Assembly (NCBI GenBank): GCA_002422315.1
Contig: DIUJ01000068.1
Location: 30,882-94,881 of the forward strand
DNA length: 64,000 nt
From: Bacteroidetes bacterium UBA6161
GTDB taxonomy: Bacteria; Bacteroidota; Bacteroidia; NS11-12g; UBA955
Reading direction: 5' to 3'
The notes under the pieces were generated by a model that saw only the letters and a program-made list of their open reading frames with translations, searched no databases and was not told where the DNA came from. The position numbers and the translations under genes are program-made. Of the stretch, positions 5,990 to 31,317 are shown piece after piece (the first letter of the stretch is position 1; each line of letters starts with the position of its first letter).

Positions 5990-8202
5990 TGATTACATCC
6001 ATAAACATAAAGAATGTAGCAACCTATGACCCAGTGAATGGGGTTGAAATAGATGGTTTAAAAAAAATAAACTTTATCTATGGGGCTAATGGATGTGGTA
6101 AAACAACTTTATCAAACTTTTTGCTGTATCCTGGTGATACGAAATTTGCTAATTGTGTTTTAAACTGGGAGAATCAAACTCCACTCAATACTTTAGTTTA
6201 CAACAAAGAGTTTAGAGAACAGAACTTTGGCAAAGGTAAATTGAATGGAGTATTTACACTTGGACAGGCTACAAAAGAGGAAATTAAGGTCATTGAAGAA
6301 AAAACAGATCAACTAAAAACGATAAAAGATGATGGGCAAAAAAAGCGTGAAACACTAAACGTTCAAAAAAAGAAAAGAGAGGATTTAGAAAAAGAATTTA
6401 CTGAAAGTTGTTGGAAGAAAATCTATAAAAAGTATGATCAAGAATTTAAGGAAGCCTTTGTTGGTTCAATGAGATCTGGAGAGTTATTCAAAAATAGGTT
6501 ACTTCAAGAATTTGAGAATAACTCTGCTACTCTAATAACTTTAGAAGAGCTAAGAGAAAAGGCGAAAACAATTTTTGGAGAAGTTCCACAAAATATATTA
6601 TCCATAAGCGAAATTAATTATGACAGAATAATTGAAATCGAAGGTAATACAATTTGGGCAAAAATTATTGTTGGGAAAGCTGATGTAGATATTGCCAAAT
6701 TAATTCAAAAATTGAATATAACCGATTGGGTCAACCAAGGAAGAACTTATATACAAGAAGAGGTTGAAACTTGCCCATTTTGCCAACAAAAAACAATTAC
6801 AGATGATTTCAAAAATCAATTAGAAAGCTTTTTTGATGAAACTTATTTAACAGATATAAAATCACTTAAAGAATTAAAACAAGAATACAATTCATTGACT
6901 CAAAACATTATCAATGAGCTAAACGAAATTGAAACAAACCAAAAGAACTTTACAGGCTCTAAATTGAATATAGATAAGTTTTCAGCTTATCTAAAAACAT
7001 TAATAAGTCAGATTACGACCAATAGTGAATTTTTAAACAACAAATTAAAAGAACCAAGCAGAAGTATTGAATTAATATCACTCAACGAACAACTTGACTT
7101 GATAAATGATTTAATAAAAATTGCCAATGCAGAAATCAAAAAACACAACGATATAGTACTCAATTTCAATACTGAAAAAAGTACATTGATACAATCAATA
7201 TGGAAATTCATTATAGAAGAATTTAGAAACGAAATTACAAAGTATAACACTGATAAAAACGGGCTAGACTCTGGAATTTTGGCATTACAAACTCAATTAA
7301 CTACTAAGCTCACTGAACACGGTACGTTAAAAGCTGAAATCCAAAATTTAAGCAAAAACGTTACAAGTATTCAGCCAACTGTGGATGAAATCAATAGACT
7401 TTTGAAATCCTATGGTTTTCTAAACTTTGAAATTGTACCCACAGCGGAAAATGGATTTTATCAAATTCAACGTGAAGATGGTGAAATTGCTGAAGACACT
7501 CTAAGTGAAGGTGAAATTACGTTTATTACTTTTTTGTATTATTTGCAACGTGCTAAAGGAGGTGAAACAGAAGAATCGGTTAATGAAGAAAGAATCTTAG
7601 TTATTGATGACCCCATTTCTAGTTTAGATAGTAATGTGTTGTTTGTAGTAAGCACATTGATCAAGGAAATAATCAAAACTGTAAAATCAGAGACGGGAAA
7701 TATCAAACAGATTATTCTTCTTACCCACAATGTTTATTTTCATAAAGAAGTTTCTTACGAAGGATTGAACAGAAAAGGTGAGAAATCTCAATTTTGGATT
7801 TTACGTAAGAATAACAAAGTTTCTACAGTCCATTATTATGCTGATAAAAATCCAATTCAATCATCTTATGAACTACTCTGGCGAGAAATCAAGGAATGGG
7901 AAAACAATTCAGGTATAACCATTCAAAATACATTAAGAAGAATACTTGAAAACTATTTCAGCATTTTGGGAAGTAAACGAGATGATGTTTTAATCAATAA
8001 ATTTTCAAATCAAGAAGAAAGAGAAATATGCAGGTCTTTATTGAGTTGGGCAAACGAAGGTTCTCATACGTTACCAGATGATTTGTTTATTGAAGCTCCA
8101 GACGGTACGATAACTAAGTATTTAGATGTGTTTAAGAATATTTTTAATCACACAGAAAATATTGGTCATTATAATATGATGATGGAATTAGAAAGCGATT
8201 GA
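5989..8202 (+). CDS. Rad50/SMC-like ABC ATPase with CxxC zinc hook (AAA_13-type), RloC/PrrC-like putative anticodon nuclease
   Basis: Walker A 'GANGCGKTT'. 'CPFCQQ' sits ahead of a long coiled-coil insert. Signature-like 'LSEGE', Walker B/D-loop 'ILVIDDPISSLD' and H-loop 'LLTHN'. C-terminal 'R-x3-E ... H' (TLRRILEN...EGSHTL) resembles the PrrC ACNase triad. Start overlaps the hsdS stop (TAATG). Confidence 0.55.
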   Translation: MITSINIKNVATYDPVNGVEIDGLKKINFIYGANGCGKTTLSNFLLYPGDTKFANCVLNWENQTPLNTLVYNKEFREQNFGKGKLNGVFTLGQATKEEIKVIEEKTDQLKTIKDDGQKKRETLNVQKKKREDLEKEFTESCWKKIYKKYDQEFKEAFVGSMRSGELFKNRLLQEFENNSATLITLEELREKAKTIFGEVPQNILSISEINYDRIIEIEGNTIWAKIIVGKADVDIAKLIQKLNITDWVNQGRTYIQEEVETCPFCQQKTITDDFKNQLESFFDETYLTDIKSLKELKQEYNSLTQNIINELNEIETNQKNFTGSKLNIDKFSAYLKTLISQITTNSEFLNNKLKEPSRSIELISLNEQLDLINDLIKIANAEIKKHNDIVLNFNTEKSTLIQSIWKFIIEEFRNEITKYNTDKNGLDSGILALQTQLTTKLTEHGTLKAEIQNLSKNVTSIQPTVDEINRLLKSYGFLNFEIVPTAENGFYQIQREDGEIAEDTLSEGEITFITFLYYLQRAKGGETEESVNEERILVIDDPISSLDSNVLFVVSTLIKEIIKTVKSETGNIKQIILLTHNVYFHKEVSYEGLNRKGEKSQFWILRKNNKVSTVHYYADKNPIQSSYELLWREIKEWENNSGITIQNTLRRILENYFSILGSKRDDVLINKFSNQEEREICRSLLSWANEGSHTLPDDLFIEAPDGTITKYLDVFKNIFNHTENIGHYNMMMELESD

Positions 8203-17647: not shown

Positions 17648-20068
17648 TTACCTCATCAAATGCACAGATATATTTTCTGTAACAGATCTAAAAGGTGCAG
17701 CACCAGTTTCAATTGAATTGAAAGTTACACGTACAATATATACCCCAGATTGGACTTGTTGTCCTTTGTATGACCCGTCCCATGCTGCTTGCGGGTCTTG
17801 GCTATCGAAGAGGAGTTCTCCCCAACGGTTATAGACGGTCATTCTTGATACTATCCAGCCTTCTGCAACTGGTCTGTAGGTGTCGTTTTTTCCGTCTCCA
17901 TTGGGAGAAAATGAATTGGGCATGTATATACCGTATTGTTTGAAATAGGGCATGCACTCACTTATTTCTTCACATTCTCCCCGGGTAACTCTCACAGCAA
18001 AAAGCCCATTGTATGGTGGATGGAAATCTTGCGAATCTGCTCCTTCAACAGTTGTGAAATTGTTGTTACAATCATACCACTGATAATTTGCTCCCGAAGG
18101 CAATGCCCTCAAAATGGGTAAACGCTCTTCAATTCTTGCAACAATGGGAGGATAAAACGAAATTTCTACAGTAGATAAACTATCACAACCTTCAGTTGTA
18201 CTTAGTGTATCAGTATATCTACCCTCACTATTTAAGATTCTACCATTAAAATTGTAGGTCTCGCCCTCACAAAGAAAAACGGGTAGAATAAACTCAGGTG
18301 CAGGGGTGACAGTGATGTTGGTAGTAACAATACTATCACAACCCTCAGTAGTTTTAATTGTGTCCACATAAGTGCCGCTTTCCCAGTATTCGTTGTTTGC
18401 AATGCTATAGCTTTGACCTGCGCAAATAGTTACATCAATCAATGTGTCTGGAGGAGGCAATACAATAAGGTGGGTATAGACAATGCTATCGCAACCCTGA
18501 TAGGAAGTAAACGTATCGAGAAAATCGCCACTAACTGAGTGTTCTTTATTGCCCACCCAAAAGCTAGAACCTGAGCAAATAATTAGGGTATCGTTGCTCA
18601 CAAAAGTGTCTGTGCAATTGGCGAATTTGCATATAAATCCATTTTGATAGCCTTTAGCAATAAGGGTTTTGGAGGAATCTCCGGGGTCAAATTCAACTGT
18701 GTCTGCAAAAACACCTGCCACATAGAGTGCTCCATAAGAACCCTTATACACGGCATTGCCTCTATCATTCATTTTTCCTCCCATACTTTTTGCCCATACA
18801 AACTCTCCAAGACTATCATACTGGGCAACAAAAATATCTGTAGCTCCGTTAGAAGTTAAAAAGTAATTATTTGAGTTTGGGTCAAAATCAACTGTGTTAG
18901 AAAAATATCCGACTAGTAATATGTTATTTTGATTGTCAATAGTTAGACTAGATAATGTAGCAAACATTAGATTAGATTCAGACGCAAAATGTTTTACCCA
19001 ATTTAGTTGTCCATTCGAATCGTATTTAGCTAAAAATAAATCAAAAGCATTTGGTTTATTTGATGTTAAGCGATAGTTGCTTATTCCTGTGTCTAGATTT
19101 ATTGTTCCAGTAAACCTACCCCAAGCAATTACTTCTCCGCTATTATTAGTTCCTGATATAATAAAAGGATTACTATTTGAATTAGTTATTTGTTTAACCC
19201 ATTTAAAATCACCCCATATATCTAATTTTAGTATAAACTGATTGGAATTATTTATAGGTGAGGAGGTTAGTATCTCCCCCTCAAAATCAACTATACCTCT
19301 AAAATGTCCTGAAATAATTACATTATCAAATGAATCTATGCTTAGACTTGATGACCACTCATCACCAGTTCCCCCATATTTTTTTGCCCATTTGAATTCT
19401 CCTTCTGAGTTTAACTTTAAAATAAAAATATCATTATTACTTCCTGCCGAAGTTAATCTGAATTCGATTAATGTATCTGGATTAAAGTCAATAGACCTTT
19501 TAAACCATCCAGAAATGTAGATATTAGAATGTTTGTCAATTTTCAATAATGGCCATAAGATTGTAGAGTTATTTTCGATTGCGTTTGTTTTCTTTACCCA
19601 AATAAAACCCCCATTTTGATTAATTTTCAAAACAAAAAGTTCTCTTGAATTTGTTTTTGTAGATAAAACATTTGAACCGCCACTAGGATTAAAATCTATA
19701 TTCCCAATAAACTCTCCCGCAATAACAAGGTGTCCAACAGTATCAATTGCAATGGAAACAGCTTTGGAGCTTGTGTTTGAACCAACTACACCAACCTTTT
19801 TTGCCCAAACAAAATTTCCATTCTTATCTAATTTAGAAATAAATCCTAAACTAGTGCTTACTGTATTTAATAAAAAGGAGTTTTCTCCTGGGTCAAAATC
19901 GACTATACCATTAAAAGCGCCCACACTATATACATTCCCAGAGTCATCTATCACCATACTATAGATTTGCGCATTATCCCCCTCAAACCCCTTTACCCAT
20001 TGCATATTTTGAGCATTAGTAATTGTTGCAAAGAGTATGAATAGATACAGAGAAAGTGCTTTTTTCAT
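17648..20068 (-). CDS. secreted beta-propeller-repeat protein with T9SS type-B (gliding-motility/CHU_C) C-terminal domain
   Basis: Signal peptide 'MKKALSLYLFILFATITNA'. Repeated 'G..F..W.K' beta-propeller units and Cys-rich repeats. C-terminal 'MPNSFSPNGDGKNDTY...IVRV'. Confidence 0.7.
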   Translation of the reverse strand: MKKALSLYLFILFATITNAQNMQWVKGFEGDNAQIYSMVIDDSGNVYSVGAFNGIVDFDPGENSFLLNTVSTSLGFISKLDKNGNFVWAKKVGVVGSNTSSKAVSIAIDTVGHLVIAGEFIGNIDFNPSGGSNVLSTKTNSRELFVLKINQNGGFIWVKKTNAIENNSTILWPLLKIDKHSNIYISGWFKRSIDFNPDTLIEFRLTSAGSNNDIFILKLNSEGEFKWAKKYGGTGDEWSSSLSIDSFDNVIISGHFRGIVDFEGEILTSSPINNSNQFILKLDIWGDFKWVKQITNSNSNPFIISGTNNSGEVIAWGRFTGTINLDTGISNYRLTSNKPNAFDLFLAKYDSNGQLNWVKHFASESNLMFATLSSLTIDNQNNILLVGYFSNTVDFDPNSNNYFLTSNGATDIFVAQYDSLGEFVWAKSMGGKMNDRGNAVYKGSYGALYVAGVFADTVEFDPGDSSKTLIAKGYQNGFICKFANCTDTFVSNDTLIICSGSSFWVGNKEHSVSGDFLDTFTSYQGCDSIVYTHLIVLPPPDTLIDVTICAGQSYSIANNEYWESGTYVDTIKTTEGCDSIVTTNITVTPAPEFILPVFLCEGETYNFNGRILNSEGRYTDTLSTTEGCDSLSTVEISFYPPIVARIEERLPILRALPSGANYQWYDCNNNFTTVEGADSQDFHPPYNGLFAVRVTRGECEEISECMPYFKQYGIYMPNSFSPNGDGKNDTYRPVAEGWIVSRMTVYNRWGELLFDSQDPQAAWDGSYKGQQVQSGVYIVRVTFNSIETGAAPFRSVTENISVHLMR

Positions 20069-20170
20069 AGTTAGCTTGTTTCAAAAGTAGTGAATATAAT
20101 TTAAAAAATAAACCATCTCCTATTCTTTCATTGAATAAGAGATGGTAAAAAATAGCATATAGTTGCCTTT

Positions 20171-22849
20171 CTAAAGCACTATTATCTTGTGTATTTCAAC
20201 TTTATTATCCATACTGACTTTAAGCAAATATACTCCTGCTGCCAGATTAAAGGTAGTGCGCCCTTTTGCGCTGCTTGTTTGAATAAGTCTTCCATCAACC
20301 GTATAGAGTTCGTAAGCAATATCACCCATTTCAGGAGAATTAGGAGTTGATACAATTGTAACTCCACCGCCAACAGGGTCAATAAGTAAGCTTACATTTA
20401 CCAAATTGTTGTCTTGGATTTTTTCAAAGTATTTTTTTTGGTTTTCGGGTCTAATCAAGGGCGCAAAGTCTTCATCCTCAAAAAATTCAAAATCTTCTTC
20501 GCCATCCATCCCTTCTTCACCGTCTTCTCCTTCTTCACCAGTTACTTCGTCATATTCAATAGGCTCTCTTGGACCATAGGGATTTAAGCCACTTCCACTC
20601 CAGCTACCAGCTCCCGAAAACCTGTAATTATAATAACAGTTTGAAGTTTCAACACGTGATTTGCTAGGGTCATCAAAATCAGTTAAAACGCCTACTTGGG
20701 TTGGGTAAACTTCTGGTTCATATTCAAAAAGTTTCCAAGTGTTAGTACCATCGTAAAAAGATATTATGGTCTTTGAGCCAGTCATAGAAACCACATTTGC
20801 TCCAACTCCAAGATATGAAATTCCAGGTTTGTAGCCAACTAAATCTGTAATACCTAACATTTTTTTAACCATAATGTCATATAAACTACCATCCCTCATA
20901 TAACAGTTGAATCTAATATTTGGACTACCTGTTTGAGTGTAATATAAAACTTGTTGACCATGATGACTTTCTTCGTAATAGACAGGAAAGCTTGAGCCAT
21001 TTGTAGGGTCGATAAATCTAAAGTTATTAGCATCTGCTTGAATACCAGATGTTCCGTTGAGCGAATATAATTGTTCAAACACTTTATTACAATTGCATAT
21101 TTCTATTGTATATGAAGGGGGAGGGGGTTGACAAAAAGTCCATTTATTGCTTCCCAAGTTACATGCGATTAGAGCATCAACAGTAGTTAAACTTAATCCA
21201 TCATAATAATTATTTGCCAAAGGAAGGGTTAAATACTTCGTTGAATATCCTCCTATTCCTCCTCTTCCTGCTCTTCCTCCTTTGATACTAACTTTAGAGG
21301 AAAGAGATTGGTTTCCAGTTGAGTTTTTCATAATCCAAATAGTTCCGCTGTTTCCTCCGTTACCTCCATCACCTCCTTGCGCACCAACGCCACTTAAACC
21401 TGTACCGCCAACACCTCCAGATGGAACAATATCTCCTGAATTACAACCACCTGCTGTACCATCCCCACCATTTCCACCTCTTCCTCCATCTCCACCTGTT
21501 TGTCCTGTCCTTCCGTTTTCTCCATCTACAAAAAGAAACTTAGTGCTTACATTAACTATGTATGATTTTGCTTTTAATAATATTATTCCACCACCTCGAG
21601 CAGCAGGGGCGGCTTTTCCACCAGGGTTACCGTCAAAACCAGAAAAGCCAGGTTGTGCCTGAAAAGGAGCTGGAAGAAATGTTTCTAATGAATTTACACC
21701 ACCATCACCTCCATATCCACCTGCACCTGCTCCGTCACCTCCACTAATTCCAGGCAAGCCTGCATCACCCATTCGCAATGTTGTCCAATTACTAGACCTA
21801 TCAGGGTCACTTGGCGAATATATTTCTACATCATTAAAATCAGTATTTGTGCCTTGATCGCGGTTGCTATCATCTGGCCCCTCTCCGTTATCTCCATTTC
21901 TTATATTAGTTAGTGGATTTGCTGTTAAATTGAGATCATCAAAACTAAATTCTAATGCAGAACCTCCCCCAGTTTTGCATAAATATCCATGTTTATTAAT
22001 ATCATTTATATCAATTGGAGGATCTGTCCCTGCTGGCATAGGAACACCATTTCCTGGAGTATATGCATTATCAATTGGGCCTGCATGAGGTCCACCAGGC
22101 CAACCACCATTTGCTGAAGAGTTTTTTGCTGGAGCTGCATTTCCTACCCCTCCTTGCCCAATTAGAGGAGTGCTACTAGACCAACCAACATGATATCCTT
22201 TTGCTGCAGAATTAATTATACCACCATTGAAATTTAATTCATTTGCAACAATCAATGCTGTAATCCCACCAGTTCCATCTTCATGGTCATAAGGACGACA
22301 AGTTAGTTCTCCTCCTGGATCCAAATCCATATCCCAATAAATGGGAACTCTGCTAATTTGTATTCTATCATTAGCAGTTACTGAGAAAGTCGGAAGCCCG
22401 TAAGGAGCAACAACCCTTAATATTTTTGTAGAACAATTATATGAAACAATGGTAACCCTTGTGTGATTTCCAACAGTAGTGGTTCCAGATGTAGTATGGT
22501 CTTCCATCTGAATCAATAAACACCATTTGTCACTACTAAATGCTAAACTACAAGGATGGATATAGTTTGGAACATCATCCCAATCTTTTGGAGGAGCAAT
22601 TTCAATATCATATATATCTGGAGAAGAACTGACTAGGGTAATATCTAAAACTCTTGCCCTGTTATCATCCGTATATACTTTTGTGTTTATTGCAATACTT
22701 GAAGCATCAACTTCTGGATTTCCTGAACCGGAAGGCCAACCTGCAAACTGACCTAGAACGTTTGAAGCAAAAAACATAAATAATGTTAGAACTGGATAAT
22801 ATTTGTAACCACCAATCTTGCTTTTTAATAATCGTATTTTATTTTTCAT
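20171..22849 (-). CDS. large Gly-rich secreted protein with T9SS type-A (Por_Secre_tail) C-terminal domain
   Basis: N-terminal TM/signal. Long 'GGxGGxGG' tracts. C-terminal 'GVYLLKVSMDNKVEIHKIIVL'. Confidence 0.65.
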   Translation of the reverse strand: MKNKIRLLKSKIGGYKYYPVLTLFMFFASNVLGQFAGWPSGSGNPEVDASSIAINTKVYTDDNRARVLDITLVSSSPDIYDIEIAPPKDWDDVPNYIHPCSLAFSSDKWCLLIQMEDHTTSGTTTVGNHTRVTIVSYNCSTKILRVVAPYGLPTFSVTANDRIQISRVPIYWDMDLDPGGELTCRPYDHEDGTGGITALIVANELNFNGGIINSAAKGYHVGWSSSTPLIGQGGVGNAAPAKNSSANGGWPGGPHAGPIDNAYTPGNGVPMPAGTDPPIDINDINKHGYLCKTGGGSALEFSFDDLNLTANPLTNIRNGDNGEGPDDSNRDQGTNTDFNDVEIYSPSDPDRSSNWTTLRMGDAGLPGISGGDGAGAGGYGGDGGVNSLETFLPAPFQAQPGFSGFDGNPGGKAAPAARGGGIILLKAKSYIVNVSTKFLFVDGENGRTGQTGGDGGRGGNGGDGTAGGCNSGDIVPSGGVGGTGLSGVGAQGGDGGNGGNSGTIWIMKNSTGNQSLSSKVSIKGGRAGRGGIGGYSTKYLTLPLANNYYDGLSLTTVDALIACNLGSNKWTFCQPPPPSYTIEICNCNKVFEQLYSLNGTSGIQADANNFRFIDPTNGSSFPVYYEESHHGQQVLYYTQTGSPNIRFNCYMRDGSLYDIMVKKMLGITDLVGYKPGISYLGVGANVVSMTGSKTIISFYDGTNTWKLFEYEPEVYPTQVGVLTDFDDPSKSRVETSNCYYNYRFSGAGSWSGSGLNPYGPREPIEYDEVTGEEGEDGEEGMDGEEDFEFFEDEDFAPLIRPENQKKYFEKIQDNNLVNVSLLIDPVGGGVTIVSTPNSPEMGDIAYELYTVDGRLIQTSSAKGRTTFNLAAGVYLLKVSMDNKVEIHKIIVL

Positions 22850-22992: not shown

Positions 22993-23340
22993 TTCGTTTT
23001 CATAGTCCTTTTTCGGACAGCGAACAATGTGGTAAATAGCTATATTATTAAAATGAGAACTAAAAAGGACAAAACAGCAAATTCTGCGGCAAGCATAATT
23101 GAATCTGCCATAATAGTAATGAACTCTACTGACTTGGTCGGTTGCCGAGCAGCTGTTCTGTCCTTCTCCATGGGGTCTTGAATAGCTAATTCAATTTCCT
23201 ATAGAGGCAAGTTTTTATAAGCTTATTTGCAATACAAATTACAGTTAATAAACATTAGATTACCAAACATATTGAATGAATAAAACAAATTTCAGGAAAT
23301 TCCCTGAGATAAACTCTCAGGAAATTTCCTGAATATTTTT
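22993..23340. repeat. direct repeat copy 1 (~345 bp) ending in a 40-bp hairpin + T-run
   Basis: About 95% identical to 28397-28740. Contains 'ttcaggaaattccctgag ataaact ctcaggaaatttcctgaa' followed by 'tatttttt'. Confidence 0.85.
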
Positions 23341-23751
23341 TAATTTAACTCCTGTTTTAAGGAGTATTTATATTTCATTTCATAGTAAAAAAATAAAAAC
23401 TATGACTCTGCCACTCACCTGTAATTGTAAAAATTGGACTGTAAAACAAAAAATAGTTCTTAATACTATTGGAATGGTTCAACATGATATTGTTTGATAT
23501 CATTCAGTTGTATTCTAAAACTTGAAGCAGAGAGTGGGTAAATTGATTAAACCTTTACCCAGGAAAATTAATTACTACATTATCAAATGGAAATCTTTAA
23601 TTTCCATTCTTTGTGTAGGGTTTAGCTTTTTGCAAAATTATTCCGCTACCTCATGTTGCAGGAATATTTACTCTATTTTTAAGGAATTTTGAGAAGTTTT
23701 TTCTCTCGTTCCTATTTCACAAGTTGTTAAAAGAAAAGTTAGCAAAGGGAG

Positions 23752-25494
23752 TTATCTCAATAAGTTAAGCGTTCCTCTATATATGTACTTTTTATCCGGC
23801 TGTGTGAAGATATAATATTGTATAATTATGGTATAAACACCTGCTTGGCAGGGTTTGCCATCAAATGTTCCATCCCATGCAGAGCCTAGGTTTTCGCTTA
23901 CAGATAGGATTTCTCCCCAGCGGTTTAGTACACTTATTTGTGCTGAACTTATATTCACACAATTAATAGATAACACATCGTTAAGTCCATCTCCATTAGG
24001 GCTGAAAGCATTTGGAAAACCGCATATATCAGAAAACTCTGGGCAATATTCTTCCAGATAGAATGTATCTCTTACTATACAGCCCAAGCTGTCTGTAAGG
24101 GTAAGATAAACATAGCCTGTGTCTGCACTTGCAAACTCTGTACCTGTTTGATCTGTTCCGTTTATTTGCCAAAATGCACTCACTCCTTGTTCTTCAATAT
24201 GAATCTGCAAACGGTTAAAATCATTGCGGGTATATTTGCAAAGACTGTCAATATGTTGAATAGAATACGCAGGTGTTTCTTTTCCAAAAACATAAAGTGT
24301 ATCATATTCACCATTCCATAAACCAACAATCTGTTCAACTGCTTTGGTTATTTCTAAATGCAAAACATCACTCACAACCTCACTGCCATTTTCTAATATC
24401 CAAGTAATTTCTCTCCCAAAAGCTTCTCTCAACTCAATTTTCTCCCCAATACAAACAGCAGTGTCCTTAGTTAAAGAAAAACTATCTAAAGCGATAAGAT
24501 AAACACTGTCAATAAAGGCATACATTTCCCAATCAGAATATGCTATGCAACTGTCTCTAATTATACTGCATGGGAAGTTAAAGAGCCATTTTATCATGTT
24601 TTGCTGTTCTCTCTTCCAAAAATTACCAATAGTCAAGTGGGTAAAAGTGTCTTCTGCTACAAACTCCCATGAATACTCAATCCATTCTCCTTTGCTCATA
24701 AAAGGCTCGGATATTCTGAACTGCGGGGGGTGAGTGTTAAAAGGGATTTCTGGTGTACCAATGCCCGGTTTATAGTTGACAGGCTGATTTGTAGATAATA
24801 GAATGCCCAGACCGTCAGTCAGATAAGTATTCCATTCTTGTAAAGGCCAATTAAATTGGTACGACCCTGAATTAGGTACGCTCCTTTCTATTTTGACCGT
24901 GTCAGGGATGTTGTTTGTGTCTATGAAGTTATTAGCAGTAGCAAAAAAACCTATCTTATATCTTATTCCTTCTTTTAAAGGCTGTTTCAGAATATTAGTC
25001 ATGTAGTTTGTGTTTAAATTGCTATACATATAACTATTGATTGACATATTTTCAGTTATACTGTCATTGAAGTGATAATAAAATCCACCTTGTGACAAAC
25101 TAATTACAGCCATTTTAGTGCCATGAAAAGCTGAGTCTATATTTGCTAAGTTCACAAATAATCGTGAGCTATTATCAAACAGAAAAGGGTGAGAATGGCT
25201 GTGATAGGATTCTGTTATCGGCATGTTACTAAGGGGGTAAAAAGTATCTGGCAGGTTATTTCCTCCGCAATCCCCAAAGGCGTTGGGTGAAGCGCATGAG
25301 CTCCAGTAATCGGCATATTGGATGTTCGCAAGTGGAGGACGAGAATACCAGTCGGGATAACTTAACTTACCCCAAAAATGCTGCTGTTCGAAACTGCCAT
25401 TCTGCACAAGGTTTTGTGCAGTAATTGGCAAGGACAGCAGCAGAACAACTGCTGCTGCCACAAACCTATTAATTATTGCCGATTGATAGCGCAT
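23752..25494 (-). CDS. secreted protein with T9SS type-B (CHU_C) C-terminal domain
   Basis: Signal peptide. C-terminal 'FPNAFSPNGDGLNDVLSI...GVYTIIIQY'. Confidence 0.65.
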   Translation of the reverse strand: MRYQSAIINRFVAAAVVLLLSLPITAQNLVQNGSFEQQHFWGKLSYPDWYSRPPLANIQYADYWSSCASPNAFGDCGGNNLPDTFYPLSNMPITESYHSHSHPFLFDNSSRLFVNLANIDSAFHGTKMAVISLSQGGFYYHFNDSITENMSINSYMYSNLNTNYMTNILKQPLKEGIRYKIGFFATANNFIDTNNIPDTVKIERSVPNSGSYQFNWPLQEWNTYLTDGLGILLSTNQPVNYKPGIGTPEIPFNTHPPQFRISEPFMSKGEWIEYSWEFVAEDTFTHLTIGNFWKREQQNMIKWLFNFPCSIIRDSCIAYSDWEMYAFIDSVYLIALDSFSLTKDTAVCIGEKIELREAFGREITWILENGSEVVSDVLHLEITKAVEQIVGLWNGEYDTLYVFGKETPAYSIQHIDSLCKYTRNDFNRLQIHIEEQGVSAFWQINGTDQTGTEFASADTGYVYLTLTDSLGCIVRDTFYLEEYCPEFSDICGFPNAFSPNGDGLNDVLSINCVNISSAQISVLNRWGEILSVSENLGSAWDGTFDGKPCQAGVYTIIIQYYIFTQPDKKYIYRGTLNLLR

Positions 25495-25518
25495 ATTACA
25501 AACAAAGATAGCATAAAA

Positions 25519-28026
25519 TTAATTAACTATAAGCTTATAGCTCGACACATTTCCTTCTTTTGTTATTGTAACAAGATAAGTTCCTTTTGCAAAGTTATTT
25601 GTATTTACTGTGTATTGCCTTAGATTTGTCTGTACCTTGTATATTTCTCTTCCAAGTAAGTCATAAACTACAATTGTTTTGATTTGATTTGGTTCTTGCA
25701 TAACTGCCTCTTCATTAAAATCGTTATCCCTAATTACAAACATATCAGTATGTTGCATGAAGGATACCCATTCTCTATTGTGTTCTTGTATATTATCGTT
25801 GGGTAATACCAGCAAAGTACTAGGGTTTCTGTTAAAATGTATGGTTGGGTCAACATCTGGAACTGGTTCCGGCAAAGTTTCACCTGTTTTTCCAAATTCA
25901 AGATCGTCTTCGTCCATGTATGGATGCCATGCAAAGCAACGTGTTGTATCAATTTTAAACGATTGTGTGGAAGTACCAGGAAACTCATAGAAAATAAATC
26001 TGTCCTGAATAGGAGCATTAATTGAAACATACTTCATTACAGGTAATCCTCCTATTTCACTGAATTTATATTCAAAATGGTCCGTTGTAATAATTTGCTT
26101 ATCCGCAGGAAGAACTATATCACTTCCTGTTAGGGTAGGAAATTGTTTTTGAGGTGTTTCAAGGTTGCTTATAAGGGAGAGAAAAACTTCTTCTGCTTGG
26201 TCTCGTTCATAAAAGCGACATACATACTTAATTCCAGCCCCAATATTGTGGGTTGTTGTCAAAGTAGCTTTAGTAATATCAAACACACTTTGCCAGTTTC
26301 CAGCAGTCCAAGTAATGTCAGTGCCTGAAATTACTCCTGATGCTGAAGCGTATTCTGCTTCGAAGGGATACATAGCCATATCACAGTTGCAATACCATTG
26401 AATGGCACTTCCTCCTCCACTATTACATCTTTCGTAGTCATTTGAGAGATCAATACCGTCAGGTTCCTGCACAAATGGTGGATTAAAGGGTATATGCCTA
26501 AAAGCTCCTTGTCCTCCAAAACCGTTTGATCCTGACTTCAAGTTCACCCAATTCATAGTAAAAGCCATTCCAAAAAAATGAAATTCGGGCTGTGGGATTG
26601 AAGATGCATTGGTATATAAAAAGATTGTCCCACCTTTTCCACCTAAACTGCCATCACCACCATCAGAGGGTGTGCCTGGTTCTCCGCTTCCACCTGTTCC
26701 ACCCGAGAACCAAACGTTAGGGTCCGAAATGCTTCCTTGACCACCAAAACCACCAGCACCTGGCGCTCCCCCCATTTCTCCTGTTTTGCCATGTTCTCCT
26801 TGCTGTCCAGCTGCATTTAGCCATCCATTCATCATTCCTTGATGGTCCGATGAATTTCCCATGTCATCCCAAAAATTAAGAGTTTTAATGAGAATAATGC
26901 CTCCGCCACGTGCCCCTCTACCTGCATCTCCTCCTTTCCCTCCATCATCACCATGATTTCCGTTTGCTCCCATTATGGGGGTTGAATGTCCGGAAGCACC
27001 TCCTGTTCCACCATGCCCTGCTCCACTTCCTCCTTCTCCACCTTTGAATGCATCAAACCCTCCTTTTGTATAACCTGCTGAACCCATGACAGCAATATTG
27101 CTAAAAATATTAGGAGCCCCATAATTGTAGGCAGTAAAAACCAGTGGACTGACTTGTGTTCCAGGGTTTCTATTATTCATTTCGTTGTCTCCTGGAGTTC
27201 CCGCTGTGCCGCTAGTTCCATTTGTACCCGGGTTTGGAGTTAAACAATAATCAGAGTATGGAATAGGAGACAAATAGCCGTCATTGTTATACATATTGTC
27301 TCCTGCTCCGCCACTTCCTCCTTGGCCAAATGTAATGTTCTCAGGATAAAAACCGCAACCTTCAGCTGTAATAACTGATCGATGAATTTTTGTCTGACGA
27401 GCAGAGTAGCACAATACCCCACCAGTATAGCCATCCCAAGGCTTACACCTGACAACTGCATGATTAAGGGTTAAAATATTGAATCTTGGAATCAGTAATA
27501 CCTGCAATCTGGACGATGGATTACCTGGACTACCTTGTTCTGTTTCAAAAGCATAAGAATACTTGCTTACATGAATCTCAACTGGGTTTGCCATTAAATC
27601 AACCCCTACAACATTAAGTTCTTCAAACCACCCACCAGCAACCCCATCACTTCGTTTCATCTGAATAAGCATTGCTCTTTGACCTGATACCGCCCCCCAA
27701 TCACTTTGTCCATGAGAATGTACCACATCTAAATAAAGTATATCGTGGGTGGTTGGCGTTCTATCAACATGTGTGACATGTGCCCTTGTATTATCAGTGA
27801 ACCAATCTATACCAGAAATAGGTAGTGGAGATGGGTCGCTTGGAGTAGGATATCCAGTCATAAATTGTCCTTTGATCAGAGGTGCATGAAAAATAAATCC
27901 AATAAACGCAAGTATAGTAAGTAAATGAAAAACTTTTGTTGGCTTGCCATTGGGATGATGTGCATGTTTGTAAATTTCACTACATGATGCACGGTTCTGT
28001 GATTTCGTAATTTTTTTCATAAGCAT
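25519..28026 (-). CDS. large Gly-rich secreted protein with T9SS type-A C-terminal domain; paralog of 20171-22849
   Basis: N-terminal TM. Gly-rich tracts and a shared 'GGGIILIKT' motif (compare 'GGGIILLKAKS' in 20171-22849). C-terminal 'GTYLVTITKEGNVSSYKLIVN'. Confidence 0.65.
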   Translation of the reverse strand: MLMKKITKSQNRASCSEIYKHAHHPNGKPTKVFHLLTILAFIGFIFHAPLIKGQFMTGYPTPSDPSPLPISGIDWFTDNTRAHVTHVDRTPTTHDILYLDVVHSHGQSDWGAVSGQRAMLIQMKRSDGVAGGWFEELNVVGVDLMANPVEIHVSKYSYAFETEQGSPGNPSSRLQVLLIPRFNILTLNHAVVRCKPWDGYTGGVLCYSARQTKIHRSVITAEGCGFYPENITFGQGGSGGAGDNMYNNDGYLSPIPYSDYCLTPNPGTNGTSGTAGTPGDNEMNNRNPGTQVSPLVFTAYNYGAPNIFSNIAVMGSAGYTKGGFDAFKGGEGGSGAGHGGTGGASGHSTPIMGANGNHGDDGGKGGDAGRGARGGGIILIKTLNFWDDMGNSSDHQGMMNGWLNAAGQQGEHGKTGEMGGAPGAGGFGGQGSISDPNVWFSGGTGGSGEPGTPSDGGDGSLGGKGGTIFLYTNASSIPQPEFHFFGMAFTMNWVNLKSGSNGFGGQGAFRHIPFNPPFVQEPDGIDLSNDYERCNSGGGSAIQWYCNCDMAMYPFEAEYASASGVISGTDITWTAGNWQSVFDITKATLTTTHNIGAGIKYVCRFYERDQAEEVFLSLISNLETPQKQFPTLTGSDIVLPADKQIITTDHFEYKFSEIGGLPVMKYVSINAPIQDRFIFYEFPGTSTQSFKIDTTRCFAWHPYMDEDDLEFGKTGETLPEPVPDVDPTIHFNRNPSTLLVLPNDNIQEHNREWVSFMQHTDMFVIRDNDFNEEAVMQEPNQIKTIVVYDLLGREIYKVQTNLRQYTVNTNNFAKGTYLVTITKEGNVSSYKLIVN

Positions 28027-28396
28027 AAATTTATTTTTTTAAATCGACTTGAAACTCTTTCAAGCATTGTTTAATATAAACGGACAAAAGGGTCTGATTG
28101 TCCAGCAGAAAAGAAACACAAGCTTGTGTCTATTCACTTAAAAAAAGAATCAAACTGTGTAGTAATACCTTGCCAGCCTATACTTTAATTTTGAGGTTAA
28201 AAACGTCAGTGCATTGGCAAAAGTGTGAAGTTATTTGTGAAAACTATGCAGCATATTTTAGTATCTACTGTCTGCAAGCAGTTTCAAATTTGCATTATCT
28301 GCACTCACGAAAAAGGCGAGCTTGGATACTGATTAGAAGAAACGAACTCTGACCGCATTATTTGAATTCACAAAATCTACTTAACTATCATCTATA

Positions 28397-28740
28397 TTCG
28401 TTTTCATAGTCCTTTATCGGACAGCGAATAATGTGGTAAATAGTTATATTATTAAAATGAGAACTTAAAAGGACAAAACAACAAATTCTGCGGCAAGCAT
28501 AATTGAATCTGCCATAATAGTAATGAACTCTACTGACTTGGTCGGTTGCCGAGCAGCTATTCTGTCCTACTCCATGGGACTTGAATAGCTAATTCGATAT
28601 TCCATAGAGGCAATTTTTATAAGCTTATTTGCAATACAAATTACAGTTAATAAACAGTAGATTACCAAACATATTGAACGAATAAAACAAATTTCAGGAA
28701 ATTCCCTGAGATAAACTCTCAGGAAATTTCCTGAAATTAA
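28397..28740. repeat. direct repeat copy 2 (~345 bp) with the same hairpin
   Basis: Aligns base-for-base with 22993-23340. Weaker similarity continues to a shared 'actATGact' start context at 28801 / 23399. Confidence 0.85.
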
Positions 28741-28803
28741 TTAATATTTTTTTTATTTTATGGAGTAATGAAATATCATTGCAGGGTTAATAAATAAAAT
28801 ACT

Positions 28804-29187
28804 ATGACTACACCAAACACCCCAGAGGCACAACCTATTAGTTGGGACGAAGCACAAATCATGATTCAATCTTACCGAACTAAGTTTCCCAACACTTTAG
28901 TCAACGAAGATAATCAACGACTTGATGGTTTTAGAATCCCAGTAACAGAAATTGTTAAAATCATACAAAGTATGCCTTTAGTTCCACATACAGGACCTCA
29001 AGAAGCATATACCTATTGTAAAGATATATTTATGATGCCTGCCGTTAGAGTGAGTGATACAGATCCGGAAGTTGAAGTTTTTACTCTTGTTGTTGCAGGA
29101 ATCGATGCAGATAACAAGATTATCAAAAATGCTGTTTATGAGTACGTAAGACCATGTCCATGGTTTTGCCCCACAAACTTCTTTTAA
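28804..29187 (+). CDS. hypothetical protein
   Basis: 127-aa ORF directly downstream of repeat copy 2. No motif found. Confidence 0.4.
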   Translation: MTTPNTPEAQPISWDEAQIMIQSYRTKFPNTLVNEDNQRLDGFRIPVTEIVKIIQSMPLVPHTGPQEAYTYCKDIFMMPAVRVSDTDPEVEVFTLVVAGIDADNKIIKNAVYEYVRPCPWFCPTNFF

Positions 29188-29191
29188 CTAA

Positions 29192-29854
29192 ATGGAAACT
29201 TACGATGTTTTTCATCTATTTATTGTTTCCCTAATATTCCTTATTGCAATTTTTGGACTTTACAATTATAATCAATTAAGTGCCTTTGGCACATCTTTGT
29301 TTTTCTTTACAGCCTTTCTTTTTATAAGTGAAGCAATAAGCTTTTATTTTGCAATTAGAATGAAATCTAATACAGTGTTTTTTCATATAGTCCCGTACTT
29401 TCATCATTTGTTTATTACAGCTACCTATTTCAGTTTGTTTAAAGGTAATCCGAAATTAAGGAGATTTACAGTGTATAGCATTTTGCTTTTTTTTGCATTT
29501 TCATTGGTCAATACCGTTTTCTTTCAGGATCTAAACCAAGTCCCAACATTAAGCATTATTCTACAAAGTTTCTTAATTATTGTTTATACCTCGATACATT
29601 TTTATGTTATCATTTCTGACTATAAAGGACAAACACTCAGTAAAAACAATGAATTTTGGTTTAGTACAGGAAACCTGTTTTATTACCCCTGCTTAATGCT
29701 GTTATGGTTATTAATAGTTTACCAGAAAGATTATGAACAAGCTTTACCAGGATTCATTTTTTTCTTACTTATTTTGGCGAATATTTTCTTGTATATTTTT
29801 TATTTCTTCGCCCTTTTTACTGATGTAAAAGTTAATAATACAAAAGATAGTTAA
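29192..29854 (+). CDS. polytopic membrane protein (possible detached sensor module of the downstream kinase)
   Basis: About six hydrophobic helices. Ends 3 nt before the histidine kinase ORF. Confidence 0.45.
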   Translation: METYDVFHLFIVSLIFLIAIFGLYNYNQLSAFGTSLFFFTAFLFISEAISFYFAIRMKSNTVFFHIVPYFHHLFITATYFSLFKGNPKLRRFTVYSILLFFAFSLVNTVFFQDLNQVPTLSIILQSFLIIVYTSIHFYVIISDYKGQTLSKNNEFWFSTGNLFYYPCLMLLWLLIVYQKDYEQALPGFIFFLLILANIFLYIFYFFALFTDVKVNNTKDS

Positions 29855-29857
29855 ACA

Positions 29858-30649
29858 ATGAAAAATTTACTAGTTCTATCTGAAACTAACTTTGTAAACT
29901 ATATTGCCATCATTGTTATTCTGATGCTATTGGTATTATTTTCATTGTTCACTTATCTCATTTATAAGTACTATCAAAAACAACAAGAGTCAAAACTTGC
30001 GTTAAAGAATTTGGAAGTAATCCATAAAAAAGAACTACTAAACATGCAAAGTGAAATTACCAAACAAGTTCTGAAAACAATTGGAATGGAGTTACATGAT
30101 GATGTAAGCCATCATTTAGTCATGCTAAAACTTGAAGCAGAGAGTGGTAAAATTGATTTTAGTAAAGGCAGTTCTGAACTTAGTGATAGGCTTGGCAATG
30201 TTTTAAAAACGCTTCAAGGGATTACTAGTTTTTTTAGCACCTTAGACAATGATTTTCTTGATGTTATTAGTAATATCGAAGACGATATAAACCGAATTAA
30301 TCAAAAAGGAATGATAAAAATAAACTATGACAATCAGAACCCAGAAACTCCTGAAAGCCTTTTGTCTAGATTGTATATATTTAGAATTTATCAAGAAGTA
30401 ATTACTAATATTTACAGACATTCCCAAGCCAAAGAAATGGATATCATGTTACTTTCTGACCAAAAAAACTTTATTATGATGATGAATGACTATGGTAAAG
30501 GTTTTGAAACGAATTTGCTAAATCAAACAGAAGGAAAGTTTGGACTTAATAATATAAAAAACAGGTGTGATTCGATAGGCGGATCTTTTTCAATTATGTC
30601 GAAACTAGGTCAAGGTACTAACATAGTAATTAAAATACCTCTAGAATGA
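29858..30649 (+). CDS. sensor histidine kinase, HisKA_3 (NarX/LiaS-type) + HATPase_c
   Basis: One TM helix. H-box 'GMELHDDVSHHLVMLKLE'. G-box region 'GKGFE...FGLNNIKNR...GTNIVIKIP'. Confidence 0.75.
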   Translation: MKNLLVLSETNFVNYIAIIVILMLLVLFSLFTYLIYKYYQKQQESKLALKNLEVIHKKELLNMQSEITKQVLKTIGMELHDDVSHHLVMLKLEAESGKIDFSKGSSELSDRLGNVLKTLQGITSFFSTLDNDFLDVISNIEDDINRINQKGMIKINYDNQNPETPESLLSRLYIFRIYQEVITNIYRHSQAKEMDIMLLSDQKNFIMMMNDYGKGFETNLLNQTEGKFGLNNIKNRCDSIGGSFSIMSKLGQGTNIVIKIPLE

Positions 30650-31317
30650 AACGTAATAGAAATTCCAAAATAAGAGTATGGATTGTTGATGACCACTTGC
30701 TATTTACAGAAAGTTTAAAGTCTGTAATAGAATCGAATTGCGAATATATTAAAGTTGAACAAAAAGCTTCTAATGGAAAAGAGTTATTAGAATTACTAGA
30801 AAGAAAAAAACATCCTAATTGCATTTTGTTAGATATTCAAATGCCTATTATGGGAGGATTGAAATTTTTAGAGTATTATAAACACAATTACCCAAATCTT
30901 AATATCCTTATTTTATCGATGCATTGCGATAAACTTAGTATTAGTAGGGCATTAATTTACAAAGCAAAGGGGTTTGTTTCAAAGAATATTTCACAATCGG
31001 AATTGATAGAAGCAATTAAAACAGTAGCACTTGGAGAAAAGTATATTCAGAATGATTATAAAGATTTATTCAACGAAATCCTAACAGAAAGAGAAGAAAT
31101 AAATGGAAAAGTACTAAAGTTTACTGCAAAAGAAAGTGAATTTATTCGACTTTGTCTAGGGGACTGTTCTTATACAGAAATAGCCGACATTATGAATGTT
31201 ACTTACAAAACTATTGATACACATAGGTATAATATTTTCAAAAAGCTAGGAGTAAAAAGTCGGAATGCTATGTTAATTCATTTGAGAGAAAGAGGTTGGC
31301 TTGAAGGTAATGAATAA
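30646..31317 (+). CDS. response regulator, NarL/FixJ family (REC + LuxR-type HTH)
   Basis: REC 'VWIVDDHLLF...LLDIQMP'. C-terminal LuxR HTH 'SYTEIADIMNVTYKTIDTHRYNIFKKLGV'. Overlaps the kinase stop (ATGA). Confidence 0.85.
   Translation: MKRNRNSKIRVWIVDDHLLFTESLKSVIESNCEYIKVEQKASNGKELLELLERKKHPNCILLDIQMPIMGGLKFLEYYKHNYPNLNILILSMHCDKLSISRALIYKAKGFVSKNISQSELIEAIKTVALGEKYIQNDYKDLFNEILTEREEINGKVLKFTAKESEFIRLCLGDCSYTEIADIMNVTYKTIDTHRYNIFKKLGVKSRNAMLIHLRERGWLEGNE

Follow-up and report, generated by a model that had tools for sequence, protein, structure and literature searches.

The stretch of DNA analysed here (the window, 64 kb in length) carries two direct repeats of about 345 bp, both of which lie 5' of minus-strand cassettes that pair a T9SS cargo gene of the Por_Secre_tail type with one of the CHU_C type. 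Copy 1 is located 143 nt upstream of an 892-aa T9SS gene. Copy 2 occupies a divergent intergenic region, with an 835-aa T9SS gene (minus strand) on one side and an operon encoding a 127-aa protein and a two-component system (plus strand) on the other. The following features are referred to throughout:

17648-22849, minus: T9SS cargo cassette 2 (892-aa Por_Secre_tail protein, 20171-22849; 806-aa CHU_C protein, 17648-20068), following copy 1 along the minus strand
22993-23338, minus (strand taken from the minus-strand promoter evidence): core of repeat copy 1, 95-96% identical to copy 2
23264-23271, minus: perfect -7 box TATGTTTG (TAnnTTTG) in copy 1, with an alternative -7-like box TAATTTGT at 23241-23234
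23291-23333, no strand: hairpin of copy 1, made up of two tandem 16-bp palindromes, TCAGGAAATTCCCTGA (23292-23307) and the perfect TCAGGAAATTTCCTGA (23317-23332)
23339-23420, plus: decayed rightward promoter and first six codons of the 127-aa gene, 70% identical to 28741-28822, box mutated to TATTTCATTTCA
23450-23548, plus: histidine-kinase pseudogene fragment, 79% identical to 30062-30158, with a 2-nt indel and in-frame stops
23752-28026, minus: T9SS cargo cassette 1 (835-aa Por_Secre_tail protein, 25519-28026; 580-aa CHU_C protein, 23752-25494)
28027-28396, minus: conserved non-coding leader that links copy 2 to the start codon of the 835-aa gene, similar to related locus L028
28397-28740, minus: core of repeat copy 2, the parental copy, 95-96% identical to copy 1
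28666-28673, minus: same -7 box in copy 2, with the alternative box at 28643-28636
28693-28735, no strand: twin palindromes of copy 2 (28694-28709 and 28719-28734), same sequence as in copy 1
28774-28781, plus: rightward -7-like box TATCATTG, 22 nt before the ATG of the 127-aa gene
28804-31317, plus: intact operon for the 127-aa protein, a 220-aa membrane protein, a HisKA_3 histidine kinase and a NarL/LuxR-type response regulator (223 aa, 30646-31317)

The 127-aa protein is conserved and has no match in Pfam or NCBIfam; its AlphaFold model is poor (pLDDT 56.6), a fold match was not found, and a protein-guided scan of metagenomes for relatives found none.

The repeat pair and the decayed flank of copy 1

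The first-pass annotation, made from the sequence alone, had described direct repeats of about 345 bp and 95% identity that bracket two T9SS cargo genes. Both statements are borne out, the genes (CHU_C and Por_Secre_tail) being encoded, however, on the minus strand. The limits of the repeat fall at 22989/22993-23333/23338 and 28393/28397-28735/28740, giving a spacing of 5402-5404 bp, and a global alignment of copy 1 with copy 2 contains 330 matches, 12 mismatches and 6 gap positions (~95%). Of the identical runs, the longest measures 77 nt and another 56 nt, while about half of all differences are gathered in a 47-nt patch (23165-23211). Both copies were found, identical, in two independent assemblies (ENA and JGI), and the repeat is therefore not an assembly artefact; the assemblies are 99.93% identical to each other and hold the same differences between the copies.

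The copy-number check proposed with the annotation, run on the 64-kb window, returned these two copies only, and a 19-mer of the core has just the same two sites there (chance expectation, 0). Among 185,579 species-representative GTDB genomes, a core 21-mer had one match, by chance, in an unrelated high-GC MAG. A core 23-mer was without a match in JGI metagenome contigs, as was the repeat unit in viral contigs, plasmids and phages, and an nhmmer profile search of all collected loci recovered no more copies of core or leader.

The surroundings of the two copies differ between left and right. The left flanks are unrelated (shuffle p 0.1-0.9) and the junction there is sharp; the right flanks are related, with none of 2000 shuffles scoring as high. 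The weaker similarity that had been noticed up to an ATGACT start is real (70% over 83 columns), and so are the 31-aa ORF after copy 1 and the 127-aa ORF after copy 2, the stretch 23402-23420 being the counterpart of the first six codons of the 127-aa gene. Moreover, homology runs on past the start codon, 23450-23548 matching the histidine-kinase gene at 30062-30158 (97 nt; E 2e-18) with mismatches spread evenly over the codon positions (6/5/9). Homology thus reaches into fragments of neighbouring genes on one side and stops at a discrete junction on the other, as expected of a segmental duplication. From the operon debris right of copy 1 it follows that copy 1 is a decayed partial segmental duplicate of the control region and the 5' part of the operon. 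The repeat is not a free-standing element; a two-way control region was copied in part, the copy is decaying, and the repeat is what has stayed well preserved.

This preservation is uneven. Divergence amounts to ~4-5% in the core versus 21-30% in the decayed flanks (Fisher p 6e-7 to 4e-12). The debris has diverged at least six times as much as the retained part, and on the right high identity ends where the palindromes end. The low divergence of the core is the one unexplained feature of a locus that is otherwise fairly ordinary.

Two other origins of the repeat were considered and rejected. The geometry would fit a tandem duplication of the whole module (cassette, control region and operon), but homology stops at the left edge of the core, and the identity of only 22% between the 892-aa and 835-aa proteins over their N-terminus also counts against it. 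Derivation from a pseudogene of a local protein was tried by searching both intergenic regions (tblastn) with all ORFs of the window and with retrieved proteins, and gave self-hits only. A search for an empty site in the nearest relative with an 892-type cassette (L032) found its inter-cassette region without similarity to either intergenic region.

Palindromes, predicted promoters and leader

At the right end of each copy lies a nested palindrome, just as the annotation had it. The hairpin has a 19-bp stem with 7 G-C pairs, a loop of 5-7 nt and A/T-rich flanks; its arms are themselves palindromes (self-complementary at 14/16 and 16/16 positions), the centres of which are 25 bp apart in the window. 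A T-run had been reported to follow the hairpin in both copies. On the plus strand, it does so directly in copy 1, but in copy 2 it starts 12 nt later; T-rich sequence follows the hairpin in relatives too. For the full hairpin, a terminator scan gave a minus-strand call in each copy, whereas a stem-loop followed by a U-tract on the plus strand was found only for the inner palindrome of copy 1. The copy 1 hairpin sits, on the minus strand, ~420 nt downstream of the 580-aa gene; in copy 2 and in the related loci L004 and L028, the hairpin sits between divergent promoters or genes. Palindrome spacing varies among lineages (22, 25 and 27 bp), and the L028 hairpin is plain, its arms not being self-palindromic. 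The distance from the centre of the nearer palindrome to the rightward box, in contrast, is 46.5-47.5 nt in three lineages. With two 16-bp palindromes, a fixed promoter distance and an adjoining regulator operon (the response-regulator gene lies 2 kb from the palindromes), the region carries the sequence marks of a NarL/LuxR-type operator. Degenerate palindrome patterns recovered only unrelated iteron- or operator-like arrays from viral contigs.

The rightward -7-like box of copy 2 has counterparts in L004/L005 (TATGGTTG) and L006 (TATGATTG), and in the three loci with an intact 127-aa gene a box of the form TAT[CG][AG]TTG stands 22-31 nt ahead of the ATG, on the downstream side of the hairpin. 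Most likely, this predicted promoter drives the 127-aa/two-component operon. Since the box lies downstream of the hairpin, the 345-bp unit is outside the operon 5' UTR and cannot be an attenuator of the operon. According to the related contigs, the ancestral layout would have had the hairpin between two outward-facing promoters. L004 retains the palindromes, although only a truncated kinase gene and no regulator gene are found beside its operon.

In the leftward direction, both copies hold a perfect match to the Bacteroidetes -7 box TAnnTTTG as defined in PMC9723704. Such a match is expected by chance on one strand of 345 bp in about one case in five (0.69 per kb per strand). In promoters of Bacteroidetes sigma-A, a -33 TTTG lies about 19-21 nt upstream of the -7 box. 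L004 and L028 have perfect minus-direction promoters, in which the -33 TTTG is the aligned counterpart of the TTTG of TATGTTTG; at the homologous position they read TTTG-N21-TACCTTTG and TTTG-N21-TACATTTG, respectively. The relatives' TTTG-N21-TAnnTTTG arrangement is not kept in the window, where the spacing between -33 and -7 elements is 14 nt for the perfect box, or else the non-consensus TTTG-N22-TAATTTGT has to be assumed. Read along the minus strand, the repeat consists of the twin palindromes, the putative leftward promoter and a lineage-specific leader of ~220-265 nt, for which core body no homologue was detectable in L004 or L028. The block between copy 2 and the 835-aa gene is shared more widely: in L028, the sequence preceding the orthologous gene matches positions 28031-28343 with 74% identity over 319 nt, the proteins themselves being only 42% identical, and the block is conserved in part with L004. 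Long leftward 5' leaders would therefore be ancestral here. The implied 5' UTRs measure about 400 and 630 nt, and a terminator-like hairpin lies at 22932-22905, between copy 1 and the 892-aa start; the median 5' UTR in a flavobacterium is 24 nt (PMC9723704).

As to RNA identity, an Rfam 15 scan of the window at gathering score returned only a tRNA, and at E<=10 only chance miRNA/snoRNA-like matches on the hairpin came up; the RNA-family check that had been suggested for the repeat is thus negative even at this threshold. The whole unit folds with z-scores of -5.1 to -6.8 over both strands (plus strand, -5.1 and -5.6), the minus strand folding at least as well as the plus strand. When the hairpin is left out, folding is weak (z -1.4 to -3.3; plus-strand body alone, -3.3 and -1.9), and the predicted structure of the leader is likewise weak. 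No compensatory change was seen between the two sequences of the variable hairpin at 23165-23211, arm-swap chimeras of which fold as well as the native forms; some substitutions between the copies favour the plus-strand fold and others the minus-strand fold. Six-frame translation revealed no ORF kept in both copies. A 43-aa minus-strand ORF with a hydrophobic C-terminus in copy 1 (23171-23040) is interrupted in copy 2 by two stop codons, and a search of 1.84 billion representative proteins yielded no homologue. A type I toxin-antitoxin module, which pairs a small hydrophobic peptide with an antisense RNA and is often duplicated in tandem, was rejected, the small ORF being conserved neither between the copies nor in relatives.

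Interpretation and competing explanations

The reading we favour, at roughly even odds and on the strength of sequence comparison, is that a divergent control region underwent partial segmental duplication, of which the copies are what remains at high identity, and that copy 1 may have been co-opted for cassette 2. The parental region (copy 2) lies between a minus-strand T9SS cassette and the plus-strand operon, and the duplicate carried the control region along with the 5' part of the operon; what copy 1 had of the rightward promoter, of the 127-aa gene and of the kinase gene has decayed to debris. To judge by the relatives, a hairpin or twin-palindrome operator would be flanked by two outward-facing sigma-A promoters, the leftward of which, just left of the hairpin, would start a long untranslated leader into the T9SS cassette. 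The 345-bp repeat would accordingly be made up of the palindromes, the leftward promoter and the initial 220-265 nt of the transcript that this promoter starts. Identity of 95-96% may have been kept in copy 1 through its co-option as a combined terminator and promoter/leader in front of the 892/806-aa cassette. Both cassettes would thereby come under the same control, plausibly exerted by the adjacent response regulator binding to the palindromes. At the related locus L035, too, a LuxR-type regulator gene lies divergently beside an 892-type cassette. The minus-strand terminator call in both copies suits an insulation of cassette 2 from read-through out of cassette 1, while the L028 arms, which are not self-palindromic, weaken the twin-operator reading. 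The repeat most likely serves the minus-strand surface-protein genes and not the small plus-strand ORFs; in calling it a duplicated leader/promoter element, the first-pass annotation was right as to its kind (part of a duplicated upstream control region) and most likely wrong as to strand and target.

Several observations count against the co-option reading. A uniform identity of 95-96% over ~300 bp exceeds what a promoter/leader usually needs, and gene conversion could give the same. The implied UTRs are long, the hairpin at 22932-22905 intervenes, the -33/-7 spacing deviates from that of the relatives and the box has the chance frequency given above. Furthermore, the core body is without a homologue in L004/L028, folding is weak, compensatory change is missing and no regulator is encoded beside the L004 operon. 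As to the low core divergence, selection on the co-opted leftward promoter/leader is favoured over gene conversion.

A stronger version of the co-option reading, which we consider unlikely, holds that the leftward transcript (the 220-265-nt body plus the 320-370-nt block at 28027-28396) is an undescribed cis-regulatory leader of T9SS cargo genes, switched via the twin palindromes by the NarL-type system, in which case core identity would reflect purifying selection on an RNA or DNA element that Rfam lacks. Somewhat more weight, though still tentatively, is given to copy 1 being dead, with identity kept up by ectopic gene conversion (perhaps initiated at the break-prone palindrome) or by a second, later copying, and with the short flank islands, isolated by deletions, diverging freely. 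Such a neutral relic would account for the uniformly low divergence over ~300 bp with its identical runs of 77 and 56 nt, which is beyond the usual need of a promoter/leader, as well as for a core body that is not conserved in the nearest relatives, folds weakly and does not covary; also the patch at 23165-23211 is the kind of mosaic typical of patchy conversion. A conversion tract needs homology on both sides, yet the high identity reaches the left junction without any homology beyond, where a diverged margin would be expected, and on the right it ends exactly where the functional-looking palindromes end. Besides, copy 1 differs from copy 2 in the same way in both assemblies.

The remaining explanations concern the repeat as a unit. 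It is improbable that it is a rightward sRNA gene or a structured leader/attenuator ended by hairpin and T-run and acting on the next ORF, as the annotation had offered. In its favour, plus-strand folding of the full unit is good (z -5.1 and -5.6), T-rich sequence follows the hairpin, directly so in copy 1, and a hairpin between divergent genes, which has no adjoining gene to terminate, could mark the end of an intergenic RNA. These z-scores, however, come almost wholly from the hairpin and are at least equalled on the minus strand, and neither compensatory change nor a match in Rfam at E<=10 is found. No plus-strand -7 box exists within the unit; the sole candidate, TAnATTCG, straddles the junction, upstream of which the copies are unrelated, and so an sRNA gene would be without a conserved promoter, just as the U-tract, displaced by 12 nt in the functional copy 2, is not conserved. 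The attenuator version, for its part, conflicts with the operon box downstream of the hairpin in three loci, which leaves the unit outside the mRNA. A programmed switch, whereby the repeats delete or amplify the 5.4-kb segment with the 835/580-aa cassette or the palindromes serve a site-specific recombinase, is very improbable. The annotation's idea of deletion or amplification is possible mechanistically, the identical runs being adequate RecA substrates, and, given the palindromic arms, the hairpins of the two copies are also mutual inverted repeats. Yet no variant arrangement occurs in the available assemblies: all those long enough to show the arrangement have the same one, and a short Logan contig simply breaks at the repeat. 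The only integrase gene is 25 kb away beside a tRNA, none for a recombinase being nearby, and the pseudogene debris shows the repeat to be a by-product of duplication. Hardly credible at all is insertion of a small non-autonomous mobile element at both sites (a MITE or an IS200/IS605-derived palindrome-associated element), despite the discrete size, the sharp left boundary, small hairpins near both ends and a body that is missing from the homologous L004 and L028 regions like a ~205-220-nt insertion. There are just two copies in 64 kb, and collections of genomes, metagenomes, viruses, plasmids and phages gave no real match; a terminal inverted repeat linking the two ends of the unit was not reported, the right third (promoter and palindromes) is ancestral in position, and homology continues past the right end into gene debris, which transposition would not carry.

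If the co-option reading is true, the locus would show regulatory rewiring in progress: a two-way region was copied, its redundant half decayed and the half facing the second cassette was kept. Should the cis-regulatory leader exist, the duplication would illustrate how a regulon grows in nature when a control module is copied; under gene conversion, the repeat would be an ordinary relic, of note chiefly as a hazard to assembly and a potential substrate for deletion. The regulation of T9SS cargo genes is poorly known outside a few model species, and testable handles are provided by the leader (74% nucleotide versus 42% amino-acid identity) and by the palindrome pair beside a dedicated two-component system.

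Comparison with known systems

Regulators of the NarL/LuxR group (GerE-type HTH) bind palindromic operators at the centre of divergent promoter regions, e.g., NarL at 7-2-7 sites, or LiaR in promoters beside liaFSR-like operons. The region of copy 2 resembles these in its neighbouring genes, which encode a HisKA_3 kinase, a NarL/LuxR-type regulator and an accessory membrane protein, and in its two 16-bp palindromes between outward-facing putative promoters at a constant distance to the predicted -7 box in three lineages. It differs in the variable palindrome spacing, in the plain hairpin of L028 and in the palindromes of L004, near which no regulator is encoded. With bidirectional Rho-independent terminators it shares the 19-bp stem with 7 G-C pairs, the A/T-rich flanks and the minus-strand call in both copies. 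Unlike these, the hairpins of copy 2, L004 and L028 sit between divergent promoters, where there is nothing for them to terminate; the arms are palindromes, and conservation does not extend to the plus-strand U-tract.

The locus also resembles cases in which partial segmental duplication spreads a regulatory region to a neighbouring paralogous gene and the redundant part becomes a pseudogene: homology breaks off sharply on one side and runs into decaying gene fragments on the other, and the direct repeats are a few kb apart. It differs in that divergence of the retained part is at least six times lower than in the debris, for which strong constraint or concerted evolution is needed. In F. psychrophilum, 64 structured 5' regions and Flavo-1 hits have been reported (PMC9723704). 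The window matches the long 5' leaders of Flavobacteriia in its long untranslated stretch from a putative sigma-A promoter to a secreted-protein gene and in the block before the 835-aa gene that is more conserved than the protein; it departs from the structured ones in having no Rfam family match, in its weak predicted structure and in the lack of covariation support among two or three sequences.

Copy number and gene context of the repeat

The ~345-bp direct repeat reported in the first-pass annotation is real. Repeat search and MAFFT place its copies 5402-5404 bp apart, and their global alignment comprises 330 matches, 12 mismatches and 6 gap positions, with a longest identical run of 77 nt. 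A core 19-mer is found at these two sites only in the 64 kb (chance expectation 0), and both copies, with identical inter-copy differences, recur in two assemblies of this organism that were made independently (ENA and JGI). A short Logan contig ends inside the hairpin; assemblers typically break at repeats. The locus is organised as follows.

17648-20068, minus: CHU_C protein, 806 aa (cargo cassette 2)
20171-22849, minus: Por_Secre_tail protein, 892 aa (cargo cassette 2)
22993-23338: repeat copy 1, hairpin at 23291-23333
23402-23548: pseudogene debris, i.e., six codons of the 127-aa gene, ~30 nt, then a 97-nt histidine-kinase fragment (aa 69-100)
23752-25494, minus: CHU_C protein, 580 aa (cargo cassette 1)
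25519-28026, minus: Por_Secre_tail protein, 835 aa (cargo cassette 1)
28397-28740: repeat copy 2, hairpin at 28693-28735
28804-31317, plus, 3' of copy 2: operon for the 127-aa protein, a 220-aa membrane protein, a HisKA_3 kinase and a NarL/LuxR-type response regulator

The first description holds for the nested palindrome, for the ATGACT start context and for the ORFs of 31 and 127 aa. The two genes bracketed by the copies do encode T9SS cargo, but on the minus strand, and the plus-strand T-run abuts the hairpin in copy 1 but not in copy 2. Both copies lie 5' of a minus-strand cargo cassette, 143 nt (copy 1) and 370 nt (copy 2) from the start codon, while a live plus-strand operon follows copy 2 only. 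In both cassettes the Por_Secre_tail protein precedes the CHU_C protein, with only 22% identity between the 835-aa and 892-aa proteins when their N-termini are compared.

This two-gene cassette represents a conserved family—a Por_Secre_tail (type A CTD) protein of ~800 aa and, after it, a CHU_C protein, with 835/580-like and 892/806-like subtypes—which recurs at the compared loci L011/L012, L013, L028, L029, L031 and L032. Cassettes are often found in tandem (L032 carries two consecutive 892-type cassettes), and the same samples also yielded a third cassette, on a separate contig (L011/L012). On the Logan contig L035, a 225-aa GerE/LuxR-type regulator (3753-4430, minus) is divergent from an 892-type cargo gene (4709-7282), a second case of this regulator class beside the family. 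Directly upstream of homologous cassette genes, L013 has about six tandem ACAAGTAC units (~7920-7970) and L030 a (CA)n run of ~14 units (~55-85), which may be slipped-strand phase-variation tracts. In the JGI assembly (L002, 6708-9223) the 835-aa gene is split into two ORFs of 592 and 263 aa, for which a real frameshift or a homopolymer error may account; across 20 kb, 6 mismatches and 8 gap openings separate the two assemblies.

A decayed segmental duplicate

That copy 1 belongs to a segmental duplicate that has since decayed is well supported. Right of the core, similarity continues at 70% identity over 83 columns and takes in six codons at the start of the 127-aa gene (0/2000 shuffles scored as high). 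A further stretch, 23450-23548, aligns with kinase-gene positions 30062-30158 at 79% identity (E 2e-18), including a 2-nt indel and in-frame stops, a match found again independently as family D4. Kinase-fragment mismatches by codon position are 6/5/9, the even spread expected for neutral decay, and the 31-aa ORF is a chimera of 127-aa-gene codons and kinase debris. Since homology reaches the kinase gene, the duplicated piece spanned from the core's left edge into that gene; ~1.2 kb was later lost internally. On its left side the core borders sequence that is unrelated between the two loci (shuffle p 0.1-0.9), which makes 22993/28397 a true junction. Still farther right, 23572-23662 shows same-strand similarity to the 892-aa gene interior (21517-21607; 65% over 91 nt, lenient scoring), which may be chance.

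The locus belongs to a known kind of process, the partial duplication of a segment that carries regulatory sequence. What is unusual is the six-fold or greater gap between core divergence (4-5%) and that of the debris (kinase fragment 21%, promoter/start flank 30%; Fisher p 6e-7 and 4e-12). As selection still acts on the flank in one lineage, a neutral core should have diverged at least as far as the flank; either constraint or homogenisation must, thus, have kept it similar.

Related loci and predicted promoters

Homologues of the 127-aa protein (78-82% identity) occur on a few metagenome contigs, and the comparison is based on three or four related loci in searchable collections. At the same upstream place, L004/L005 and L006 carry two tandem palindromes that differ in sequence from those of the window (TCAGGG-N4-CCCTGA, twice, and GGGGGAAATTTCCCCC, twice, respectively), followed by a conserved box, TAT[CG][AG]TTG, that precedes the ATG by 22-31 nt. 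Measured back from this box, the distance to the nearer palindrome's centre is 46.5-47.5 nt in all three lineages, although the intervening sequence differs; in copy 1 the box is mutated. Its position predicts a rightward promoter 3' of the hairpin, leaving the 345-bp unit outside the operon mRNA. Of the proposed "duplicated leader/promoter element", therefore, the duplication of an upstream control region stands, while a role as operon leader or attenuator is most likely wrong, given the position of the box in three lineages.

In L004, the hairpin is adjoined on its left by a perfect leftward promoter motif, TTTG-N21-TACCTTTG. The aligned position in L028, an orthologue of the 835/580 cassette (protein identity 42% and up to 71%), reads TTTG-N21-TACATTTG, with a plain 18-bp hairpin before it. 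The window retains the aligned TTTG within a perfect TATGTTTG box (23271-23264 and 28673-28666) in a shifted layout, TTTG-N14-TATGTTTG or TTTG-N22-TAATTTGT.

Downstream of this promoter, between copy 2 and the 835-aa start codon, a non-coding block (28027-28396, minus) shares 74% nucleotide identity over 319 nt with L028 (289-597), and is, thus, better kept than the cargo protein at 42%—unusual for what would, from sequence comparison, be a cargo leader. Coding is ruled out, given indels of 1, 2, 4 and 6 nt (not multiples of 3). The block includes near-perfect stretches such as TGTGTTTCTTTTCTGCTGGACAATCAGACCnTTTTGTCCG, has no Rfam match and yields a weak predicted consensus structure; it may be an undescribed 5' leader. 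Part of it also precedes an unrelated gene in L004 (1675-1754), and its occurrence in both relatives suggests that long leftward leaders are ancestral at the locus. Relative to L028/L004, the window has ~205-220 extra nt between the promoter-proximal part and the block. This stretch is the repeat body (22993 to ~23215), for which a homologue was not detected, including in L004 and L028; the repeat, hence, combines an ancestral part (palindromes and leftward promoter) with a lineage-specific leader stretch.

Functional reading and competing explanations

We give about even odds to the reading in which the hairpin or twin palindrome would act as a shared operator/insulator between two outward promoters and the repeat would be the leftward half, comprising terminator-like hairpin, promoter and leader. 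Copy 1 would persist because, having been co-opted, it now precedes the 892/806 cassette, and both cassettes would share one input, plausibly the response regulator encoded next to copy 2. By analogy, the palindromes resemble NarL/LuxR-type operators and the hairpin bidirectional terminators. Against this reading stand the non-canonical spacing of the leftward promoter, a terminator-like hairpin (22932-22905) before the 892-aa start, a perfect -7 box expected by chance about once in five on any given strand, a conservation more uniform than such elements normally need, and implied 5' UTRs of ~400 and ~630 nt (the median in F. psychrophilum is 24 nt; PMC9723704).

The main rival holds that copy 1 is dead and is kept similar by gene conversion (concerted evolution), which accounts for the uniform identity and for the clustered differences in patch 23165-23211, but fits poorly with high identity up to a junction lacking homology beyond. 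A plus-strand sRNA or attenuator is unlikely. The whole unit does fold stably (z -5.1 to -6.8, both strands), but z drops to -2.7 and -3.3 (copy 1) or -1.4 and -1.9 (copy 2) once the hairpin is removed; the repeat has no Rfam match, and arm-swap chimeras of the most variable hairpin match the native forms in folding. Applied to the two sequences, RNAalifold detects wobble-compatible changes for either strand: one long helix favours the minus strand, two hairpins the plus strand. A plus-strand promoter could only lie on or outside the junction, where the loci are unrelated, which counts against such an RNA. No ORF kept in both copies was found, nor relatives of the 43-aa ORF of copy 1. A programmed recombination switch, with the intervening 5.4-kb segment as its substrate, is likewise improbable. 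The mobile-element alternative (IS/MITE) is unlikely, too: sensitive blastn and an nhmmer profile found no third copy in the window, and none was found in JGI metagenome contigs, viral contigs, plasmids, phages or 185,579 representative genomes (a single match, in a high-GC MAG, is chance). Within the sequence covered, this lack of other copies and the homology continuing into gene debris make a MITE-type repeat very unlikely; the repeat search reported no terminal inverted repeat joining the unit's two ends.

Elsewhere in the window, a tyrosine integrase (53896-55131) lies beside tRNA-Ser (55454-55539), and the region 33087-55539 includes a long run of minus-strand genes, most of which could not be annotated, that also encodes an AAA_24 protein, a 1301-aa SNF2-type helicase, DUF8306 and RadC. 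The region probably represents an integrated mobile element or a prophage-like island; a search with a 14-nt seed revealed no att repeat. Two adjacent genes (50647-52708), within this putative island or at its edge, encode an NA37 nucleoid-associated protein homologue and a small RelA/SpoT-domain protein. The viral contigs L008 (5343-5455) and L010 (1276-1700) contain long tandem arrays of a 25-bp unit with the palindrome TCAGGTAnnTACCTGA, which look iteron-like and are unrelated to the window.
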